A stretch of 19,891 bases of DNA from a virus: UHGV virus genome UHGV-0140551; one strand, given 5' to 3'. Under the pieces are notes generated by a model that was not told where the DNA came from, searched no databases, and saw only the letters and a list, made by a program, of their open reading frames with translations. Positions 137 through 13,031 of the stretch are shown here, piece by piece. Made by a program: the position numbers and the translations under genes. Each line of letters starts with the position of its first letter. Position 1 is the first letter of the stretch.

Positions 137-1186
137 TTATGCAACCTCTGCCGCCACATTGTCGCCAACATACAGCGATAACGGATTGAGGGTTACAGCT
201 TGTTCAAGGTGGTCAGGAGCAAAGTGCGCATACTTCATTGTTTCTCGAATATTGGCATGTCCGAGAATTTTCTGCAGCACCAGTATATTCCCTCCGTTCA
301 TCATAAAATGCGCACCAAAAGTATGACGCAAAACGTGCGTCTTCTGCCCTTCCGTCAATTCAATATTCGTTAGTTTGAGCATCTTTTTAAACTCCTGATA
401 GCAGGGTTTAAACATTCTGCCTTGACGTACGGACAACTCGTCGTACAGCCATTTAGGAATAGGAACTGTGCGATTCTTCTTACCTTTGGTTTTGGTGAAC
501 GTTAGTTTATATGGAGAAAGTTGAGGTCGGGTCAATCTCTCCGCTTCCCCCCATCGAGCGCCGGTTGCAAGGCACACCTTAACAATCATGGTGAGGTCTT
601 CTTTGCCGTATTGCTCGCAGGCTCGAAACAGCTCCGGGAGCTGAGACAAAGTTAGCCAGGACATTTCTTTCTCAGCTTCTTTGAATACTCGGATCCCATC
701 AAGTGGATTGGGTAGGCTCCACTCCCCTAACCGGCGGAGCTCATTAAACACTGCTTCTAGGTATTGTTGTTCGCGATTGACGGTTATAGGTTTGGCGATC
801 CATTTCGAGGGGTCTTTATGATAACCATTGTCTATTTCACCACGTAATCGACGGTCACGATAATGAGCCCAGTCTTTCGCGGTAAGGCGAGATGCAATCG
901 GGTCGCCAAGTCCATTACATACGATTTGAAGCTTTGCAAATCTCGACTTACTGGCGACTAACGCTTGACCGTGCAAATTGTGCCAAAGCTGAATAATCTC
1001 GCTTAAGCGTCGGCGGTCTTCTTTCTTGCCGAGCCACGGCTTATCTTCACTCTCGCTTTTGGTAAATGCTTCAAATGCCTCGGCCTCACCTTTGGTATTG
1101 AACTGCCGACGTATACGCCGCCCTTCTCGACCATTTGGATAGAGTTCACACAACCATTTTCCACTTTTTTGTTTACTTACAGTCAT
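137..1186 (-). CDS. int: Tyrosine-type site-specific integrase (P2 Int-like)
   Basis: 349-aa ORF with the C-terminal catalytic region HVLRHTFGAHFMMNGGNILVLQKILGHANIRETMKYAH typical of phage tyrosine recombinases. It sits at the prophage edge and overlaps the att core. Confidence 0.93.
   Translation of the reverse strand: MTVSKQKSGKWLCELYPNGREGRRIRRQFNTKGEAEAFEAFTKSESEDKPWLGKKEDRRRLSEIIQLWHNLHGQALVASKSRFAKLQIVCNGLGDPIASRLTAKDWAHYRDRRLRGEIDNGYHKDPSKWIAKPITVNREQQYLEAVFNELRRLGEWSLPNPLDGIRVFKEAEKEMSWLTLSQLPELFRACEQYGKEDLTMIVKVCLATGARWGEAERLTRPQLSPYKLTFTKTKGKKNRTVPIPKWLYDELSVRQGRMFKPCYQEFKKMLKLTNIELTEGQKTHVLRHTFGAHFMMNGGNILVLQKILGHANIRETMKYAHFAPDHLEQAVTLNPLSLYVGDNVAAEVA
142..170. repeat. Left attachment-site repeat (attL core), overlapping the 3' end of int
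   Basis: CAACCTCTGCCGCCACATTGTCGCCAACA matches 19829-19857 at 25 of 29 positions, with the first 15 identical. It encodes the last codons of the integrase (…VGDNVAAEVA). Confidence 0.7.
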
Positions 1187-4458: not shown

Positions 4459-6681
4459 TTGGCTGTTCAATTCGCTTATCCGTGGAACGTCCCACGGTCG
4501 GCAATCTCCAGCCCATACCTTACTTATGAGCAACAGCATCGCCGCGACCGTATGTTCGCGGCTTTGCTGCATGCAAAAAAGGTGCTTTCTCTCCAGCCCG
4601 ACTGCGTGCGGTTAGATGTTTATCGCACTGCTGCGGTGCTGGAGCAAAATCAGGGTAGTCAACGAGCCAATGCATTTTTAATCAGCTTCTGCAAAAAGGC
4701 ATTGCCGCGTCTTGAACTGGTCGCAAAAAAATACGAATGCGCTGGTATCAACAGCAAGGTATCAACCGCTGTTTTTGGAAGTCATTTTGATACTCAGCAA
4801 ATGCAATATCTGTCGTCACGCATGGTTAATATGGTCGCCCAATATAACCGTCTCCCGGACATGTCGCGCGCTGATGTTGACCTGTTGGCCGCTGATATTG
4901 CTAATTTCATTCGTGGTGAACTTGCCAACATTAATGACCACGGATTCGGCGAGCTTAAAACGCTGTACACCTGGTATATTCGTGCTGGCTTTATTTCCCT
5001 CCAATTCAACGTTATCCCACCACATTGGGAGCGGGTTGAAAAAAAATATGTCGGTGCGGATGAAATCGCACCGGCTATCGCCAAAATGTTTAACGATGGG
5101 TGGTGGCGCGGTCGTTTGCGCCGTGTTGCAGCTACGTGGCGCGAACACCTGCAAATTGCAGTCGGCAACGTCAGTAAGAAAAAAAACACTTACGCGAGTA
5201 AAAACTGCGTGACTGACTGGCGTGAACAAAAGCGCCGCACTCGTGAATTTCTCAAAGGTCTGGATCTCGAAGACGAAGACGGCAACCGTATCAGCCTAAT
5301 TGAAAAATATGATGGCTCAGTTGCTAACCCTGCGATTCGCCGCTGTGAGCTCATGACCCGCATTCGTGGGTTTGAAAACATCTGTAATGAGCTCGGTTAT
5401 GTCGGTGAGTTTTACACTCTAACCGCGCCGTCAAAATATCACGCCACGACTAAAGCCGGTTACCGTAACAGCAAATGGAGCGGTGCCAGCCCGGCTGACA
5501 CGCAAAACTATCTAACCGGTATCTGGGCGCGTATCCGTGCCAAACTACATCGGGAAGATGTCCGTATTTTCGGTATTCGTGTCGCCGAGCCCCATCACGA
5601 CGGCACTCCACACTGGCACATGCTGATGTTCATGCTGCCGGAAGATGTTGAATATGTTCGCTCCATCGTCCGTAAATACGCATGGAAAGAAGACCGCCAC
5701 GAACTGAAAAGCGATAAATCCAAAAAAGCACGTTTCCACGCCGAGTCCATTGACCCGGAGAAAGGCAGCGCAACCGGCTATGTTGCTAAATACATTTCAA
5801 AAAATATCGACGGTTATGCTCTCGATGGTGAAACCGATGATGAAAGCGGTGAGCTGCTGAAAGAGACAGCCCCCGCCGTTTCAGCATGGGCTGCGCGCTG
5901 GCACATCCGTCAGTTTCAGTTTATTGGTGGTGCGCCGGTGACGGTTTACCGTGAGTTGCGTCGCCTCGCTGATACCGAAACCGCGCACGGTCTGAGCGTT
6001 GAGTTTGCCGCCGTCCATGATGCCGCCGACGCTGGTGACTGGGCTGGTTATGTTAATGCTCAGGGTGGGCCGTTTGTCCGTCGCGATGATTTACAGGTGC
6101 GCACACTGTATGAACCGCGCACCGAGCTTAATCAGTACGGTGAGGAAACGGTATGTATTAAGGGGGTCTACGATTCCTCCATAGGTGCAGGAAGCCCGAT
6201 TTTAACCCGGCTCACTCAGTGGAAGATTGTTCCGAAGCGTGCTGTTGATTTGGCCGTTGACCTTCAGGACGGCAAAGCCGTCCCTCGGAGTTCTGTCAAT
6301 AACTGTACGGGAAGCGAAAGCGATCCACCGATACTGGATTTAACAAAACCACTGAGTCGGCGTGAAAGACGAGAATTGACCAACCGACTCAGGAAGCAAA
6401 AGCCAGCAGCACGGCGAAAATTCATCCACGGAACGGATGAGCAAAACGCAGCTATAGCTAAAACTATCGATGAGATACATCTGACAACCGGCATTAATAT
6501 CAGCCGGGGCGAAGCCCTGCACCTGATGGCCGGTGGTAAAAGTTGTTTTGATGGTAAATGGCTACGCGGAACGGCCAAAGGAGAAATATTTTCCGCAGCA
6601 CCATCGCATGAGGCTAAAGCTCGGAAAATCCTTAATCGTGTTGCGGCGATGGCTGAAGCATCAAAACCAATACATGGGTAA
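4459..6681 (+). CDS. Replication initiation endonuclease (P2 gpA-like rolling-circle initiator)
   Basis: 740-aa ORF with an HUH-type metal-binding motif (TPHWHMLMF) and a tyrosine-rich catalytic segment (GYVAKYISKNIDGY). The start is a TTG at 4459 with a GGGGGG ribosome-binding site; the alternative ATG at 4552 is not excluded. Confidence 0.85.
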   Translation: MAVQFAYPWNVPRSAISSPYLTYEQQHRRDRMFAALLHAKKVLSLQPDCVRLDVYRTAAVLEQNQGSQRANAFLISFCKKALPRLELVAKKYECAGINSKVSTAVFGSHFDTQQMQYLSSRMVNMVAQYNRLPDMSRADVDLLAADIANFIRGELANINDHGFGELKTLYTWYIRAGFISLQFNVIPPHWERVEKKYVGADEIAPAIAKMFNDGWWRGRLRRVAATWREHLQIAVGNVSKKKNTYASKNCVTDWREQKRRTREFLKGLDLEDEDGNRISLIEKYDGSVANPAIRRCELMTRIRGFENICNELGYVGEFYTLTAPSKYHATTKAGYRNSKWSGASPADTQNYLTGIWARIRAKLHREDVRIFGIRVAEPHHDGTPHWHMLMFMLPEDVEYVRSIVRKYAWKEDRHELKSDKSKKARFHAESIDPEKGSATGYVAKYISKNIDGYALDGETDDESGELLKETAPAVSAWAARWHIRQFQFIGGAPVTVYRELRRLADTETAHGLSVEFAAVHDAADAGDWAGYVNAQGGPFVRRDDLQVRTLYEPRTELNQYGEETVCIKGVYDSSIGAGSPILTRLTQWKIVPKRAVDLAVDLQDGKAVPRSSVNNCTGSESDPPILDLTKPLSRRERRELTNRLRKQKPAARRKFIHGTDEQNAAIAKTIDEIHLTTGINISRGEALHLMAGGKSCFDGKWLRGTAKGEIFSAAPSHEAKARKILNRVAAMAEASKPIHG

Positions 6682-6755
6682 TTCATATCCATATCATGCA
6701 CATACAGCAATCGCTCTATTCGTTTTTTTTCTTCCCATCTTTTGCCAATACGTGC

Positions 6756-6775
6756 TACTGTATAAATATACAGTA
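6756..6775. promoter_or_regulatory. LexA operator (SOS box) TACTGTATAAATATACAGTA
   Basis: CTGT-N8-ACAG with 19 of 20 matches to the consensus TACTGTATATATATACAGTA. It lies 20 bp upstream of the ORF at 6795 and overlaps an AT-rich -10-like region. Confidence 0.85.
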
Positions 6776-6794
6776 ACCCTGTGGGAGGGATTTC

Positions 6795-6977
6795 ATGGTT
6801 GGCGAACATTTCAGCCGAACGCAGCAAAAGTGGGCTTGTGTGCAATTTATTGCCGAGGTATCTCTGATTGCAAACTGCAAGCCATCAGACTTAAAGCTCG
6901 CGCTCACTCTCATTGCAGACCTAGCAAACAGCGAAAATAACGAAACCGAAGATGATAATTTTTATAAGGCTGATTAG
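6795..6977 (+). CDS. LexA-regulated small protein, candidate Tum-like antirepressor (N-terminal part)
   Basis: 60-aa ORF with a GGGAGGG ribosome-binding site 6 nt upstream, directly downstream of the LexA box and immediately before the DinI-like gene. 186 tum has the same arrangement. Confidence 0.5.
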   Translation: MVGEHFSRTQQKWACVQFIAEVSLIANCKPSDLKLALTLIADLANSENNETEDDNFYKAD

Positions 6978-6980
6978 ATT

Positions 6981-7214
6981 ATGAGAATCAATATCACGTT
7001 GGATAAAGAGCAAAAAATTAGTCAGGCAACATTGGATGCACTTGAGGCTGAACTGTACCGCAATCTTCAACCTATTTACCCAAAGACTGCTATCCGAATT
7101 CGCAAGGGCTCCGCTAATGGCGTTGAACTAAGCGGTTTGAAACTGGACGAAGATAAAAAACGAGTAATGGAAATCATGCAGCAGGTATGGGAGGACGATA
7201 GCTGGCTGCATTAA
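6981..7214 (+). CDS. DinI-family protein (Tum C-terminal / Orf97-like)
   Basis: 77-aa ORF with clear similarity to DinI (MRI…ALE.EL.RR…MEI.Q.VWEDD…W), in a LexA-controlled operon. Confidence 0.8.
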   Translation: MRINITLDKEQKISQATLDALEAELYRNLQPIYPKTAIRIRKGSANGVELSGLKLDEDKKRVMEIMQQVWEDDSWLH

Positions 7215-7220
7215 CAAACG

Positions 7221-7255
7221 CCGCCGGTGCTGAAACTTGCTTTCAGTGCTGGCGG
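7221..7255 (+). terminator. Stable hairpin immediately after the DinI-like stop codon (15-bp stem with G-U pairs, 5-nt loop); no clear U-tract
   Basis: CCGCCGGTGCTGAAA-cttgc-TTTCAGTGCTGGCGG. Could be a weak terminator, an RNA stability element or a processing site. Confidence 0.35.
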
Positions 7256-7347
7256 GGTTGAACAACGAGCTACGCGAGGCGTTAGCCGGTCATAGCGTCG
7301 CAAATACTTCAACCGTCTGCTGGTTAAATAATTCGAGGTTTTTGTAC

Positions 7348-7542
7348 ATGCAAAATCCCCTTTCATCGAAAAATGACCCGTTTGCCGATTGGGCAAAGAA
7401 TCTGACTTTAATGGCTTTAAATAACGACCTGAGCTCTCGCGAGGTGGAAAGCTACACCGCAAAAATGGTCGAGCAGGCCGGTAAAGATGAGCTATCAGTC
7501 GTTATCAAACACCTGTTAAATCACATCAGAATGCGCAAATAA
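7348..7542 (+). CDS. Small hypothetical protein (64 aa)
   Basis: Start trimmed to the ATG at 7348, which has a GAGG ribosome-binding site 8 nt upstream (MQNPLSSKNDPFADWAKN…). No recognisable motif. Confidence 0.45.
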   Translation: MQNPLSSKNDPFADWAKNLTLMALNNDLSSREVESYTAKMVEQAGKDELSVVIKHLLNHIRMRK

Positions 7543-7558
7543 GAGGAACTATATAAAT

Positions 7559-7660
7559 ATGTTATCTATCGTTTATGAAAATCCGTGGACGACGATTTTT
7601 CTGATGATTGTTGCCAGCATGTGCCTCAACAGTGTTATTGGCGCATTGCGCGGCCATTAA
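7559..7660 (+). CDS. Small hydrophobic, probably membrane-spanning peptide (33 aa), not in the supplied ORF track
   Basis: ATG at 7559 to TAA at 7658-7660, translating to MLSIVYENPWTTIFLMIVASMCLNSVIGALRGH. It starts 17 nt after the preceding ORF and is followed by a rho-independent terminator. Below the length cut-off of the ORF track. Confidence 0.35.
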   Translation: MLSIVYENPWTTIFLMIVASMCLNSVIGALRGH

Positions 7661-7682
7661 TCGCGACAAAACCAGACTAAAA

Positions 7683-7708
7683 CCGGCACCCTGAATGCCG
7701 GTTTTTTT
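7683..7708 (+). terminator. Rho-independent terminator ending the early/SOS operon (bidirectional architecture)
   Basis: CCGGCA-ccctgaa-TGCCGG followed by TTTTTTT, and preceded by an A-run. Confidence 0.8.
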
Positions 7709-7868
7709 ATGCCATTTTTCCGCGAATTTCCCGTTTTTTAGTCGTGCATGCATTAGGTGCATGGTTTTGCATGCGTCAGTCTTGCCCGTTCTGTCCGTGC
7801 GCCGCCAGAGCTAGCGCGGATCCAGAGTTGTCATGCAACTGCATTAAAACCGCCCCATAAAGCGGGCA

Positions 7869-7887
7869 GGCGTGGCGGGGAAAGCAT
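7869..7887. other. cos cohesive-end site (186-type)
   Basis: GGCGTGGCGGGGAAAGCAT matches, from memory, the 19-nt cohesive end of coliphage 186 and 17 of 19 positions of P2 cos (GGCGAGGCGGGGAAAGCAC). It lies between the replication gene and the portal remnant, as expected. Confidence 0.7.
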
Positions 7888-8106
7888 TGCGCGCCAGCAG
7901 TGATGCGTAATAATAAAAATTATCCTCTGAGCGCGTCGTGATGGCGCTGTCGTGGTCGCTGCTGGTTCGTTGGTGGTCGAGTGTGTTCGTGCGCGTGAGA
8001 CGCATCTGATGCGTGATGGTGGTGTGCATGGAAAAGCCACCAGGAGCAGCGGCTTTACAGGAGTGGCAGGATTCAAACTGCTAATTATGTTTCTACTATG
8101 ATTAAA

Positions 8107-9111
8107 CTAATTTACATGTATGTAGAGTTCACCGTCGCCAGACCAATCGGGACACTCTAAAACAAGCCCAAACTGCTTGAATATTTCATCAATGATTATT
8201 GTTATCTCCCGAAAATCACCAAAACCTGTAATGTGCTGGTCATTAAACTTCCCATAAAGATTCTGAAAAGCAATGCCTAATTCTGATAATTGATATCTTA
8301 TCTTTGAGTTGGATAGTGTAAGGGATAGCTTTGGATCGTATTCTTTAATATTGATGTTTAGAGAATGGACATAACCCATCGCATAAGCATAAGAGTTGAT
8401 GATTAGCCTGATACGTTTTTTTACTTCAAGATACATGTCATTCAGAGAAATATTACCGTACTTATAACCCCAGATGAGTTTTTCAATCTCGTCAGATACT
8501 TCATTTACAACAGTGTCAAGATTCTCTAAAAATAAATCGATAGTTTCTTGAGGGGCAGACCCCGAAGACATGTAATTAGCGAGATATTCAGACCATGCAC
8601 GCGTGGCTGAGATAAGAAGCGCGCTACCATACTCGTTGACTGTAAAGTTTTGGGCTAAGCATGTTAGTAAGTTTTTTTCATGTACGTGCACTAATTCATG
8701 GTGAATGCGATGGATGACTGCGAGGTATCCTTCTTCTTTCAGTTTTAAGAAGCTACCATCATTGAAAAGCTCAACAAAAAAATCAATCGATAGCACAAGG
8801 GTATATTCTTCACATAGCCCATCATTGCCAATTTTTGTTACTAACTGCCCGACGGCTGCGCCCTGTTTGCTATTGGTAAATGAACTAGGGGATTTGTGTT
8901 GGTAAGAGGATGTTACCTTTTGAAGAGCTTCACTGAAGTTATAGGAAACAATCACGCATTTTAATTTGGAGATATCAAGATTGAGATTTTTTGTTAAAGC
9001 TCGGATAGCTTCTAGTGTGAAATTACCGATATTATTTGCTTCTTGCTCAGTAGCGAAACCTTCGAGGGTTATTTTAAAATCAGTTTCCAAAATATTAATC
9101 TCCGCGCCCAT
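8107..9111 (-). CDS. AT-rich accessory protein with an HExxH (zinc-metallopeptidase-like) motif; candidate anti-phage or abortive-infection gene in the cos-portal hotspot
   Basis: 334-aa ORF of markedly lower GC than the flanking phage genes. It contains HRIHHELVHVHEKN (HELVH at residues 138-142), has no Walker A motif and no transmembrane segments, and sits where P2-like phages carry variable accessory genes. Confidence 0.7.
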   Translation of the reverse strand: MGAEINILETDFKITLEGFATEQEANNIGNFTLEAIRALTKNLNLDISKLKCVIVSYNFSEALQKVTSSYQHKSPSSFTNSKQGAAVGQLVTKIGNDGLCEEYTLVLSIDFFVELFNDGSFLKLKEEGYLAVIHRIHHELVHVHEKNLLTCLAQNFTVNEYGSALLISATRAWSEYLANYMSSGSAPQETIDLFLENLDTVVNEVSDEIEKLIWGYKYGNISLNDMYLEVKKRIRLIINSYAYAMGYVHSLNINIKEYDPKLSLTLSNSKIRYQLSELGIAFQNLYGKFNDQHITGFGDFREITIIIDEIFKQFGLVLECPDWSGDGELYIHVN

Positions 9112-9969: not shown

Positions 9970-10570
9970 CCGGCTATTACCCGTTGGCTCGTCGCCGCTG
10001 GAGGTTGCCGCCGCCGCTGCGTTCTCTGAGATTCAGCGCGTGCCGGTACCGCTGCGCACCCTGTGGAACTGGCGCACCTGCCCGGTAAAGCTGCTGCCGT
10101 ATCTGGCGTGGGCGCTGTCGGTCGACAGGTGGGATGAGAAATGGCCGGAGGCGACAAAGCGCAACGTCTGCGCGTCCTCGTTTTTCGTCCATCAGCACAA
10201 AGGCACCATCAGCGCATTGCGTCGGGTCGTCGAGCCGCTCGGCTTTCTGATTGAGGTGCGCGAGTGGTGGCAACTCGACGAGGAGCCAGGCACATTCCGC
10301 CTCGTTGTTGGCGTCCTCGACAGCGGCATCACTGACGAAATGTATCAGGAGCTTGAGCGCCTGATTGAAGACGCCAAACCGGCAAGTCGCCACCTGACCG
10401 GGCTGGCTATCAGTCTGAGCTCGACCGGCGAACTGTATGTCGGCGCGGGATGCTATCACGGCGACGCGCTGACTGTTTACCCCTACACCCCCGAGGAGAT
10501 TGTCGTCGGCGGTGAATATTACCCGGCCTCGGCCATCCATTTGATTGATAACCTGAGAGTGAACGCATGA
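9962..10570 (+). CDS. Baseplate/tail protein I (P2 gpI-like)
   Basis: 202-aa ORF with conserved gpI segments (LLPYLAWALSVDRWDEKW, DAKPASRHL) and the typical start overlap with J. Confidence 0.85.
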   Translation: MSDRLLPVGSSPLEVAAAAAFSEIQRVPVPLRTLWNWRTCPVKLLPYLAWALSVDRWDEKWPEATKRNVCASSFFVHQHKGTISALRRVVEPLGFLIEVREWWQLDEEPGTFRLVVGVLDSGITDEMYQELERLIEDAKPASRHLTGLAISLSSTGELYVGAGCYHGDALTVYPYTPEEIVVGGEYYPASAIHLIDNLRVNA

Positions 10571-11523
10571 CCGCAAAATATTTTGCCATTCTGACCAATC
10601 AGGGCGCGGCGCGGCTGGCGAACGCGGCGGCACTCGGTACCAAACTCAACCTGACGCAGATGGCCGTCGGTGATGCGAATGGTACGTTGCCGACCCCTGA
10701 CCCGGCGCAGACGAAGCTCATTAACCAGAAACGCATCGCGCCGCTGAACCTGCTGACCGTTGACCCGGCCAATACCAGTCAGATTATCGCGGAACAGATT
10801 ATTCCCGAGAATGAAGGTGGTTTCTGGATCCGCGAGATTGGTCTCTATGACGATGATGGTATTCTGATTGCCGTGGCGAACTGTCCGGAGACCTACAAGC
10901 CACAACTGCAGGAGGGAAGCGGTCGCACGCAGACCATTCGCATGATTCTGATTGTGTCGAACACATCGGCAATCACCCTGAAAATCGACCCGGCAGTCGT
11001 GCTGGCAACGCGCCAGTATGTCGACGACAAGATTATCGAGGTGAAAGGATATGCTGATAACCTGATGAAAAAACATGTTGAGGCCGCCAATCCACACAAG
11101 CAGTACCCGTTAATCGCTAATGCTCTGAAAGAAATGGTTGACGCGGGACTGGCCGGCGACGTTCTTAAAAACCTTGGTTTGGGAGAGGGAGCAAAATTAG
11201 GCGCAGCGGTGTGTGTGACCGGCTCTACAGGCTATATGACTATCCCGGCAATGGTCGCCGGGAAAGAACGGGTGATCATATTGCAGTGGTTTGGTGCTAC
11301 TACAACTGATTATGTGACACCAGTAACTGCGAATTTCCCTATTGCATTCCCAAATGAGTGCATGATTCCGTTATTTAGTGATGTATCAACTGGGGCAGTT
11401 GATTTGAGTTCTACAGCCGCATATAGCTTAGCGGTGGGCCGATCATACTATACGACGGTAACAAGAACTCAGATTACATGTGCTGGCTACGGTGGCTTTA
11501 GAGTTTTCGCGATTGGATGGTGA
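10567..11523 (+). CDS. Tail fibre protein (P2 gpH-like): constant N-terminal region fused to the currently expressed variable C-terminal segment
   Basis: N-terminus matches the conserved gpH start ([18 protein letters not shown]…[22 protein letters not shown]…[18 protein letters not shown]…). A recombination site lies inside the gene at 11162-11187. Confidence 0.85.
11162..11187. repeat. Invertase crossover site (hix/gix-like), left copy, inside the tail fibre gene
   Basis: TTCTTAAAAACCTTGGTTTGGGAGAG resembles hix/gix sites and is an imperfect inverted repeat of 12711-12736. Confidence 0.6.
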
Positions 11524-11948
11524 TTAATATGTTTTATTCTGCAAAAGAAAATGCGTTCTACGCTGATGAGCTAAAAAGTATTTATGAAAATGCAGGTAGC
11601 TGGCCTGACGATGCCGTTGAAGTAGACTATTCCGTATTCGTTGAGTTTGCCGGAGAATCACCTAACGGAAAATTACGCGCTCCTAATTCTGATGGTTTAC
11701 CTGAATGGATAGATATTCCCGAACCAACTGAAGAGGAAATTATTGCGTTGGCAGAAGCCGAAAAATCGCGACTGCGTGCTTCAGCTGACTCTGAAATAGA
11801 ATGGCGGCAGGACGCCGTTGATGCGGGGATCGCGACGGAAGAAGAAACTGTTTCATTAGCCGAATGGAAAAAATACCGGGTGCTGCTGATGCGAGTTGAT
11901 ACAGCAGACCCGGACTGGCCTACTCCTCCGGCGACTCAGGCCAGTTGA
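11517..11948 (+). CDS. Tail fibre assembly chaperone (gpG/U-like), paired with the current fibre tip
   Basis: 143-aa ORF with the typical motif [10 protein letters not shown]…WPDDAVEV…; an alternative start is the ATG at 11529. Its 3' end overlaps the convergent paralogue. Confidence 0.85.
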
Positions 11949-12351
11949 TATCTGGTGCGCTGGATATGTCCACAGATTCCAGCGCATCGAGATAATCCAG
12001 CCACTCGTTATACTGGGCCTTCTCGTCGTCTGTAAGTCGCCCCAGCGCAGCTTTACCCGGCCACTGCTTGCTGTTTATATACTCATTAGCCTGATCGATA
12101 CGATACTGTTTTTCAGCTTCAGCTGCTGCGATTTCCTCCTCATGGCTTAAAGGTGGAATGTCTACCCATGCCGGCATTCCATCCTCAGTAGCTCCACGAG
12201 TTTTACCCTCTGGTGGCATCCCCGAATATTCAGTGAATGTCTCATCTGAGACGGCTATGAGATCGTCAGGCCAGTTTCTACTCGCTTCATAAACATCTCT
12301 GAGCTCATCAGGGTAGAAAGCGTTATTTAATGCTGAATAAAAATAAGCCAT
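11920..12351 (-). CDS. Alternative tail fibre assembly chaperone (U'-like) in inverted orientation
   Basis: 143-aa paralogue ([22 protein letters not shown]…WPDDLIAV…) on the opposite strand, convergent with and overlapping the 11517-11948 gene by 29 nt. Confidence 0.8.
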
Positions 12352-12354
12352 TTA

Positions 12355-12726
12355 TTAATACCCCACAGCAAAATAGTTAAACCCGCCAGCGCCGATGGAT
12401 GATTCAGCGTTGGTTCCTGTCTGATAAGCGCGTAGCTGGAAATTAGTTCTCGTAAAATCCTGGGCGGTTAACGCAAAACCTTGACCTGTACCCCCAACAC
12501 TCTGGTCTGTTGCAACAACACATAGCGCCCTGGTTGGAAACGCAATCGGGAATGATACTGTTTCTGGGGATGTTCTCGTTATGGCTATTGCCCATTGAAG
12601 AATTAACCCGCCTGGCAGGTATTGATACCCCGAATCGGCTCGCTGATTACCAAATGAAGACATGTCCGGAATCTGTCCGGAACCAGTGCCAACATTTTTT
12701 TTTGCCGCATCTCCTAAACCAACCTT
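12355..12726 (-). CDS. Alternative tail fibre C-terminal segment (Sv'-like), lacking its own start; expressed only after inversion
   Basis: The frame is open from the recombination site at about 12726 to the stop at 12355. Its …KVGLGDAAKKNVGTGSGQIP… mirrors …[13 protein letters not shown]… at the left site, and its stop is followed by the chaperone start. Confidence 0.65.
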   Translation of the reverse strand, partial: KVGLGDAAKKNVGTGSGQIPDMSSFGNQRADSGYQYLPGGLILQWAIAITRTSPETVSFPIAFPTRALCVVATDQSVGGTGQGFALTAQDFTRTNFQLRAYQTGTNAESSIGAGGFNYFAVGY

Positions 12727-12736
12727 TTAGAAAATG
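12711..12736. repeat. Invertase crossover site (hix/gix-like), right copy
   Basis: CTCCTAAACCAACCTTTTAGAAAATG matches the reverse complement of 11162-11187 at about 18 of 24 positions. Confidence 0.55.
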
Positions 12737-12788
12737 CAGATATTCCGTTCAGCTGGCATGATCCCGACTTTTTACCGGGTTATTTCTC

Positions 12789-13031
12789 ATGTTTATCGGT
12801 TATGTACGTGTATCAACAAATGACCAGAACACCGCATTACAGCGAAATGAACTGGAGTGCGCAGGATGCGAGCTGATTTTCGAAGATAAAATCAGCGGCA
12901 AAACATCAGACTGGCCGGGGCTAAAGAGGTTACTCAGAACCTTGTCAGAGGGCGATACGCTTGTGGTCTGGAAACTGGATCGCCTCGGGTATCTCAACGC
13001 TATACAAAAAATTTCCCGCATCCGTTGCTGA
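12789..13031 (+). pseudogene. Serine DNA invertase (Gin/Hin/Pin family), truncated after about 68 conserved residues
   Basis: MFIGYVRVSTNDQNTALQRNELECAGCELIFEDKISGKT…GDTLVVWKLDRLG closely matches invertase N-termini, then diverges to 12 unrelated residues and a stop. The remaining catalytic part and the C-terminal DNA-binding HTH are missing. Confidence 0.8.

Follow-up and report, generated by a model that had tools for sequence, protein, structure and literature searches.

A 33-codon open-reading frame (ORF) at positions 7559-7660 of the virus genome UHGV-0140551 is, by the pattern of substitution among its relatives, a real, selected gene for a single-pass membrane peptide. The whole stretch of DNA analysed here, which we call the window, is 19,891 nucleotides (nt) long and represents a P2-family prophage of 186/PSP3 type; the matching phage records belong to the genus Eganvirus. 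The peptide gene lies directly downstream of a gene for a 64-residue protein. An earlier note on this DNA treated the two as a pair, in which the upstream protein might be the antidote to a membrane-active peptide. We favour a different reading, namely that the peptide is an autonomous, selected small membrane protein whose gene is part of the tum operon, and we put the probability of this reading at about 0.6. Judged across related phages, the peptide gene is an accessory gene, the last before the terminator t95b and the cohesive-end site (cos) in many 186/PSP3-like P2-family phages of Enterobacterales. The central features are as follows.

7559-7660, plus strand: gene for the 33-residue single-pass membrane peptide, supported by hydropathy, frame conservation and the ratio of nonsynonymous to synonymous substitution rates (dN/dS)
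7348-7542, plus strand: gene for the 64-residue protein, predicted to form three helices; matches phrog_2454 over residues 1-64 of 64 (E = 4.6e-40)
7679-7712, plus strand: intrinsic terminator, a bidirectional A-tract/T-tract hairpin homologous to the annotated t95b of phage 186

Selection on the 33-codon frame

The peptide frame opens with an ATG at 7559, closes with a stop codon at 7658-7660 and encodes MLSIVYENPWTTIFLMIVASMCLNSVIGALRGH. It begins 16 nt after the stop codon of the 64-residue gene; the earlier note had rightly placed it directly after that gene, with a gap of 17 nt that is one too many. A 33-codon ORF alone is not beyond chance, and we consider this one a real gene because the frame is kept in relatives and because an excess of synonymous change is specific to it. 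Related loci (L numbers below) were gathered through the 64-residue protein (53 loci), from annotated phage and E. coli records, and through the back-translated core of the peptide (50 loci); this last search needed a conserved 27-nt core. The 33-codon frame is intact in 35 of the 48 distinct related loci that carry the 64-residue gene, and across relatives the two genes keep a fixed distance of 15-16 nt. Pairwise comparison of the intact copies gives a dN/dS of 0.31 for this frame, lower than in any of the other five (0.50-1.77). On a minimum-spanning tree, 49 synonymous and 52 nonsynonymous events are counted where synonymous sites make up 23% of sites (p = 2e-8). The earlier note had named conservation and dN/dS of this ORF as the check to make, and the frame is indeed conserved in relatives.

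These values bear on the view that the frame arose by chance, in DNA conserved as an arm of the terminator and cos (for packaging or as recombination homology) or as RNA. The ORF is short, always lies within ~210 nt of cos beside the highly conserved cos flank, and has weak Rfam matches overlapping its 3' end. The synonymous excess, however, is limited to the peptide frame, and 186 and PSP3 package without the peptide segment. Rfam returned nothing at the gathering score, and the sub-threshold matches at the 3' end of the peptide gene were rejected: they fall far below threshold and are accounted for by the terminator. We consider a chance frame very unlikely.

Minus-strand annotations lie over the peptide gene, the terminator and even cos (7562-7762 and 7844-8029 in the window, 3274-3543 in L004, 2734-3006 in L002). 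Minus-strand ORFs of 66-90 residues have been annotated by the Prokaryotic Genome Annotation Pipeline (PGAP) and in several phage records, with examples in O157:H7 (WP_001177885), Midge, SW9 (as 'aI protein') and SEN1, which would place the true gene on the opposite strand. But these ORFs range from absent to 137 residues, fall in two frames, run through the bidirectional terminator and are missing from loci in which the peptide is intact (L051-L054); the antisense frames have omega values of 0.5-1.75, against 0.31 for the sense frame. An opposite-strand gene has next to no likelihood in our estimate. On these comparisons, we regard the minus-strand ORFs as annotation artefacts that hide a real small gene.

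The product has the character of a membrane peptide. Its grand average of hydropathy (GRAVY) is 1.02, and its most hydrophobic stretch of 19 residues (12-30) has a Kyte-Doolittle mean of 2.09, which is enough for one transmembrane helix, as the earlier note had proposed. Net charge is 0, and the sole basic residue, R31, stands at the C-terminal end. A short acidic N-terminus (YENPW) is predicted to precede a transmembrane helix that spans about W10/T12 to L30, with an Arg at the C-terminal side, and the positive-inside rule would put the C-terminus in the cytoplasm. Twelve positions never change (Y6, E7, W10, T11, T12, F14, L15, C22, L23, S25, I27 and L30), and N24 is altered once among 21 variants. 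Substitutions are conservative: apart from residue 21 and the last two residues, which vary, I, V, L and M replace one another. Along the helix, S20, N24 and G28 form a near-invariant small/polar stripe.

Pfam, PHROGs, NCBIfam and PADLOC contain no family that matches the peptide. When 1.84 billion representative proteins were searched exhaustively with HMMER, only five relatives emerged, and no known small-protein family was linked to it. GenBank and UniProt carry the peptide as an 'uncharacterised protein', with several variants each present on about 900 to >1000 contigs; Klebsiella phage ST147-VIM1phi7.1 has a deposited copy, QBQ71544.1. Of 5426 complete E. coli genomes, 57 contain the whole segment. 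RefSeq and PGAP leave the peptide out, and to that extent the earlier description of the pair as unannotated was apt; it does not apply to the 64-residue gene, which is annotated in RefSeq (WP_001544861) and belongs to phrog_2454, nor to the GenBank and UniProt entries for the peptide. Small membrane proteins are systematically missed by annotation. Here RefSeq omits a selected gene on thousands of enterobacterial contigs and, in some records, puts non-conserved antisense ORFs over the peptide region.

The peptide gene and its neighbours

The 64-residue ORF runs from an ATG at 7348 to a stop codon at 7540-7542 and has GAGG 9 nt before the ATG, in agreement with the good ribosome-binding site (RBS) reported for it earlier. 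Its 54 homologues share 73-97% identity and all come from Enterobacterales or metagenome records. Read in its own frame, the ORF has a dN/dS of 0.14-0.31, against ~1 for the other sense frames, and is, on this codon-level evidence, under purifying selection. The family libraries Pfam, PHROGs, NCBIfam and PADLOC return phrog_2454 only. An AlphaFold2 model (predicted local distance difference test score, pLDDT, 69) has three helices; it gave no significant Foldseek match in the PDB, and a profile search of PDB sequences was empty. A Clostridium LuxR-type match (L009) was discarded as a short motif without Pfam support.

The peptide ORF is intact without the 64-residue gene in 12 loci, of which 11 come from the peptide-side search and one is the isolated phage SEN1. 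The 64-residue gene has been lost in at least four different upstream contexts of the peptide. In SEN1, L112 and L113, a precise deletion fuses a conserved hairpin element (described below) to the peptide RBS; in L102, the sequence upstream of the peptide is wholly different and has a stronger RBS. Two further groups (L064, L091, L093, L098 and L109; L082, L090 and L106) retain ~50 nt of the 3' end of the 64-residue gene, and both adjoin a different 334-residue minus-strand gene. In loci that lack the 64-residue gene, peptide dN/dS is 0.24 (p = 6e-9), and the other two sense frames give 1.0 and 1.4; among the retrieved copies, this signal does not depend on the requirement for the 27-nt core. 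Because the peptide is selected without the 64-residue gene, and because that gene is kept beside dead copies of the peptide, an obligatory toxin/antidote pair is ruled out. The peptide gene is, as far as locus comparison goes, autonomous and not one unit with the 64-residue gene. The latter is, on the same grounds, a separate accessory gene that usually lies just upstream and is not required for persistence of the peptide. Since the "pair" is not a unit, experiments are redirected to the peptide alone.

In the two groups with ~50-nt remnants (L064, L091, L093, L098, L109, L082, L090 and L106), the leftover CAGAAT has become a perfect TATAAT ~26-31 nt before the peptide ATG. This hexamer may be a newly made promoter for the peptide, with a weak -35 region.

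The toxin/antidote idea would make the peptide a membrane-depolarising toxin and the 64-residue protein its neutraliser, in a type II-like arrangement or in an SOS-induced one resembling TisB/DinQ. The gene order (small soluble protein, then hydrophobic peptide) and the tight 16-nt spacing fit this idea, as do the size and hydrophobicity of the peptide, which resemble those of type I toxins, and its frequent loss from loci that keep the 64-residue gene, as happens with orphan antitoxins. The 12 loci with an intact, selected peptide and no 64-residue gene, SEN1 and L102 among them, argue otherwise. The peptide also has no LexA box of its own, no RBS-hiding structure (z = -0.3) and no conserved antisense promoter, and searches of Pfam, NCBIfam and PADLOC revealed no similarity of the pair to known toxin or antitoxin families. 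Nor is there the co-dependence expected of a type II system: beyond those 12 loci, the 64-residue gene stands without an intact peptide in 13 of 48. The antidote role that the earlier note had raised for the 64-residue protein is not supported by this evidence, and we think a toxin/antidote relationship improbable.

Upstream of the 64-residue gene, the window also retains a piece of a third gene.

7293-7349, minus strand: 19-codon remnant of a ~143-residue gene, found by tblastn; its start overlaps that of the 64-residue gene (CATG)

The full ~143-residue gene is present in most related loci (~38), for example as WP_000042038 in O157:H7 and at 2613-3050 in L004. The family is restricted to Enterobacterales, and the protein matched no family. 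Its AlphaFold model (pLDDT 72) has a winged-helix-like N-terminus and a hydrophobic C-terminal helix; all Foldseek matches to the model are winged-helix regulators, none of them significant (E > 0.1). The starts of the 143-residue and 64-residue genes overlap at CATG, and the promoter of each must lie inside the other gene. Compared with these loci, the window pair is what remains of a three-gene cassette made up of the minus-strand winged-helix-like gene, the 64-residue gene and the peptide gene.

It could follow that the three-gene cassette is the working unit and that the window copy is a functionless relic. Most relatives have the full 143-residue gene back-to-back with the 64-residue gene where the window keeps 19 codons, and in the truncated lineage the peptide seems to be under weaker selection (omega 0.48, p = 0.03). 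Nonetheless, the peptide and the 64-residue gene are intact in all but one locus of that lineage, and loci without either of the other two genes still show purifying selection on the peptide. We therefore consider a relic unlikely and retain the autonomous gene as the better account.

Autonomy does not imply that the peptide is essential: 186 and PSP3 lack it and many copies are dead, and from this we conclude that it is dispensable for phage growth. In one group of loci (L078, L086 and L110), only the last ~30 codons of the 64-residue gene are left and the variant of the peptide carries L31 in place of R31; loss of the stop codon in L078 and L086 extends the frame to 40 and 60 residues. The peptide in this group may be a copy in decay.

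Expression from the tum operon and the surrounding prophage

The following features frame the transcription of the pair.

6732-6775, plus strand: p95-like SOS promoter, read from the sequence; aligns with the annotated p95 promoter and LexA site of 186
6795-6977, plus strand: tumA, the antirepressor half of a split tum, 60 residues; matches phrog_1993, with 98% identity to PSP3 TumA
6981-7214, plus strand: tumB, DinI-family, 77 residues (Pfam DinI PF06183, E = 7e-24)
7217-7290, plus strand: conserved hairpin element found at cassette borders, with a 15-16-bp stem and no U tract
Further copies of the hairpin element: 3841-3915 in L060; 2025-2095 and 2430-2500 in L061; also in L001, L062 and L063

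The p95-like promoter consists of a -35 element, TTCCCA (6732-6737), and, after 18 nt, a -10 element, TACTGT (6756-6761). The latter is overlapped by a 20-nt LexA box, TACTGTATAAATATACAGTA (6756-6775), that aligns with the annotated LexA site of 186. A simple consensus promoter scan did not call this promoter. With the LexA box, tumA and tumB upstream of the pair, as in 186, the earlier placement of the pair downstream of an SOS module stands, and so does the call of a strong rho-independent terminator after it. The terminator hairpin, AAAACCGGCACCCTGAATGCCGGTTTTTTT (7679-7708), scores z = -4.8 against shuffles and sits about 160 nt ahead of cos.

Between the tum genes and the pair lies the hairpin element, a ~75-nt unit whose hairpin (7217-7262) has a predicted RNA fold of -41 kcal/mol (z = -3.7). 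We found 42 distinct copies in related loci, and the element delimits accessory cassettes in 186, PSP3, SW9, SEN1 and a Klebsiella phage. The stem has kept its pairing across 23 distinct copies: 4 of 16 pairs show compensatory changes, and G-U pairs, which can form in plus-strand RNA only, are frequent. No Rfam family matched the element. One possible role is as a signal for RNA processing or stabilisation; cassette exchange also uses the element as a substrate. A copy in 186 is located between orf97 and t95b; because this copy precedes the annotated end of the p95 transcript, RNA polymerase must read through it in that phage.

Neither inspection by eye nor the scan found a convincing promoter in the window ahead of the 64-residue gene or ahead of the peptide; in particular, the scan found no sigma-70 consensus promoter between the DinI gene and the 64-residue gene. 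No consensus promoter was found on either strand of 6600-8150, and no minus-strand promoter is conserved across relatives. Around the start of the peptide (7525-7625), the predicted fold is no better than that of shuffled sequence (z = -0.3), which speaks against a sequestered RBS. Since the arrangement, with the pair behind a LexA-boxed promoter, is that of the SOS operon of 186, SOS read-through is plausible. By homology with that operon, it is plausible that the pair is co-transcribed from the LexA-controlled promoter in a transcript ending at the t95b homologue.

We envision the following scenario. The distal part of the LexA-repressed tum operon would be transcribed through the U-less hairpin element as far as t95b, and the peptide would be made mainly after DNA damage or prophage induction. 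It would insert into the inner membrane with its C-terminus inside, and the face formed by S20, N24 and G28 could mediate self-association or the binding of another inner-membrane protein. Helix association is known to be driven by Asn residues within transmembrane helices. The outcome might be exclusion of incoming phage DNA, or modulation of lysis or of the membrane state at induction; the case for exclusion is drawn by analogy from the slot of the unrelated membrane protein Orf97 in 186. The proposals on mechanism are weaker than those on expression, and we give any specific activity of the peptide much lower odds than the general reading. In particular, it is doubtful that the peptide is a hitherto unrecognised effector of prophage induction, made under SOS control from an 'anchor' gene that stays beside cos as upstream cargo is exchanged, and acting through its Ser20/Asn24/Gly28 face on an inner-membrane target to exclude competing phages or to tune membrane state and lysis, alone or as the membrane component of a new three-part system with the 143-residue and 64-residue proteins. 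If the peptide is made from the SOS-controlled operon, it would offer a simple handle on how P2-like prophages affect the cell envelope at induction or exclude rivals.

Several observations weigh against a selected gene expressed from the tum operon. The sequence AAGAGGA, which overlaps the stop codon of the 64-residue gene, stands 11-12 nt ahead of the peptide ATG, a rather long spacing that suggests weak initiation. The hairpin element could still terminate some transcripts, and where the 143-residue gene is full, read-through would run antisense to it. The peptide ORF is disrupted or replaced in 13 of 48 distinct loci with the 64-residue gene and is thus readily lost: start loss, frameshift or stops break the frame in ten (L012, L020, L021, L028, L043, L049, L050, L056, L057 and L059); in L040 the ATG is gone, although a longer frame remains open from an in-frame ATG located five codons before it; and other cargo replaces the peptide in L008 (identical over this stretch to L055) and in L058. 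Because the peptide-side search required the 27-nt core, decayed copies in loci without the 64-residue gene would have been missed. The analogy with Orf97 is positional, and comparison of Orf97 with the peptide detected no sequence similarity. Finally, the peptide is missing from the supplements of a Salmonella small-protein census, and neither the peptide nor the protein sequence is mentioned in the literature found.

The prophage around the operon is recognisable from CI, cII and fil and from these landmarks.

137-1186, minus strand: integrase
4459-6681: replication gene A
7869-7887, no strand: cos cohesive-end sequence GGCGTGGCGGGGAAAGCAT, found by pattern match; linear phage records end there
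8107-9111, minus strand: 334-residue gene between cos and the portal gene Q; matches phrog_11743

We take GGCGTGGCGGGGAAAGCAT to be the P2/186-type cohesive-end sequence. In the intact sister prophage, the gene order is A, tumAB, the 64-residue/33-residue pair, cos, the 334-residue gene and Q. The 334-residue gene of the window, for which Pfam, NCBIfam and PADLOC gave no match, is a hotspot cargo gene, so far uncharacterised, whose product is a candidate defence or exclusion factor. A prophage of E. coli 1008S13 is 99.8-99.9% identical, and relative to it the window carries two deletions. One removes a 69-residue gp37-like gene that lies exactly between two direct copies of the hairpin element (7217-7285 in the window, against 11513-11581 and 11918-11986 in L005); judged from the aligned sequences, it is a clean example of repeat-mediated cassette loss. 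The other, of ~9.9 kb, runs from the interior of the portal gene Q to the interior of the baseplate gene J, with its junction at ~9674, and takes out the head, lysis and part of the baseplate genes. Because of this second deletion, the window prophage is defective and cannot produce particles. In the tail-fibre region (10567-13031), the C-termini of fibres and their assembly chaperones occur in two oppositely oriented sets; the resolvase/invertase gene of this region has been shortened to 80 residues, and the host-range switch is therefore probably frozen.

Comparison with known systems

The SOS operon of phage 186 is the closest model. Its record (NC_001317) annotates the LexA-repressed p95, tum, t95a ("partial termination"), orf97 and t95b ("p95 transcript terminator"), and states of orf97 that "expression from plasmid blocks 186 infection". 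The window has homologues, in the same order, of the LexA-boxed promoter, the tum/DinI genes, t95b and the cos flank, and in both phages one or more accessory genes lie between tum and t95b, with the window pair in the orf97 slot. The sequence features of a 186-type tum operon are present: a LexA box over the -10 element upstream of tum, then tum/DinI, an accessory gene, t95b and cos. Orf97, like the peptide, starts with hydrophobic helices, as seen in its sequence. Unlike in 186, tum is split into tumA and tumB in the window, as in PSP3, and a different, U-less hairpin element replaces the t95a hairpin. The cargo is also unrelated: Orf97 has 243 residues against the 33 of the peptide, and we found no homology of the window cargo to Orf97 or to the 69-residue gp37-like cargo.

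In P2-like phages, the region between gpA and gpQ beside cos is a known hotspot, occupied by tin and old in P2 itself and by many defence systems in other cases (PMC9122126, Rousset et al. 2022). In the supplementary locus tables of that study, the 64-residue proteins WP_001544861 and WP_000551925 are listed only as 'hypothetical'. The window pair lies between genes A and Q, adjoins cos and varies in content among relatives, as the definition of the hotspot has it, and the P2 tin/old position that the earlier note had assigned to it is correct. The pair resembles tin and old in its slot and in rapid turnover by cassette exchange; a PADLOC search showed no similarity to any known defence protein. 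Unlike such cargo, the peptide stays fixed beside the terminator while the genes upstream of it change, which makes it more an anchor gene than variable cargo.

TisB and DinQ, SOS-induced type I toxins that the earlier note had invoked, are small hydrophobic inner-membrane peptides of 27-29 residues, close to the 33 residues found here, and a link to LexA control is possible in the window as well. Were the peptide produced from the SOS-controlled tum operon, phages would carry in it a counterpart of host SOS membrane peptides. However, the likeness does not extend further. There is no sequence similarity; the peptide has no LexA box of its own, the nearest lying ~800 nt upstream and before other genes; and we detected no antisense RNA, no conserved antisense promoter and no sequestered RBS at the peptide. 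Its helix is not amphipathic-cationic, having net charge 0 and a single Arg. Of the parts of a type I toxin-antitoxin system, the small hydrophobic peptide is present, but neither an antisense or divergent small-RNA antitoxin with its own promoter nor an RBS-hiding structure was found.

Other small inner-membrane proteins, such as MgrB, AcrZ, MgtS and SgrT, are regulators that bind larger membrane proteins, and small phage exclusion proteins are also known. The peptide shares no homology with these proteins, although it is similar to them in size and in having a single transmembrane helix. The conserved S20, C22, N24, S25 and G28 of its helix would suit helix-helix contacts, as in the MgrB/AcrZ/MgtS/SgrT class. 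In this comparison, the peptide belongs to a familiar class, as a so far uncharacterised small membrane protein encoded by an accessory phage gene at a known hotspot.

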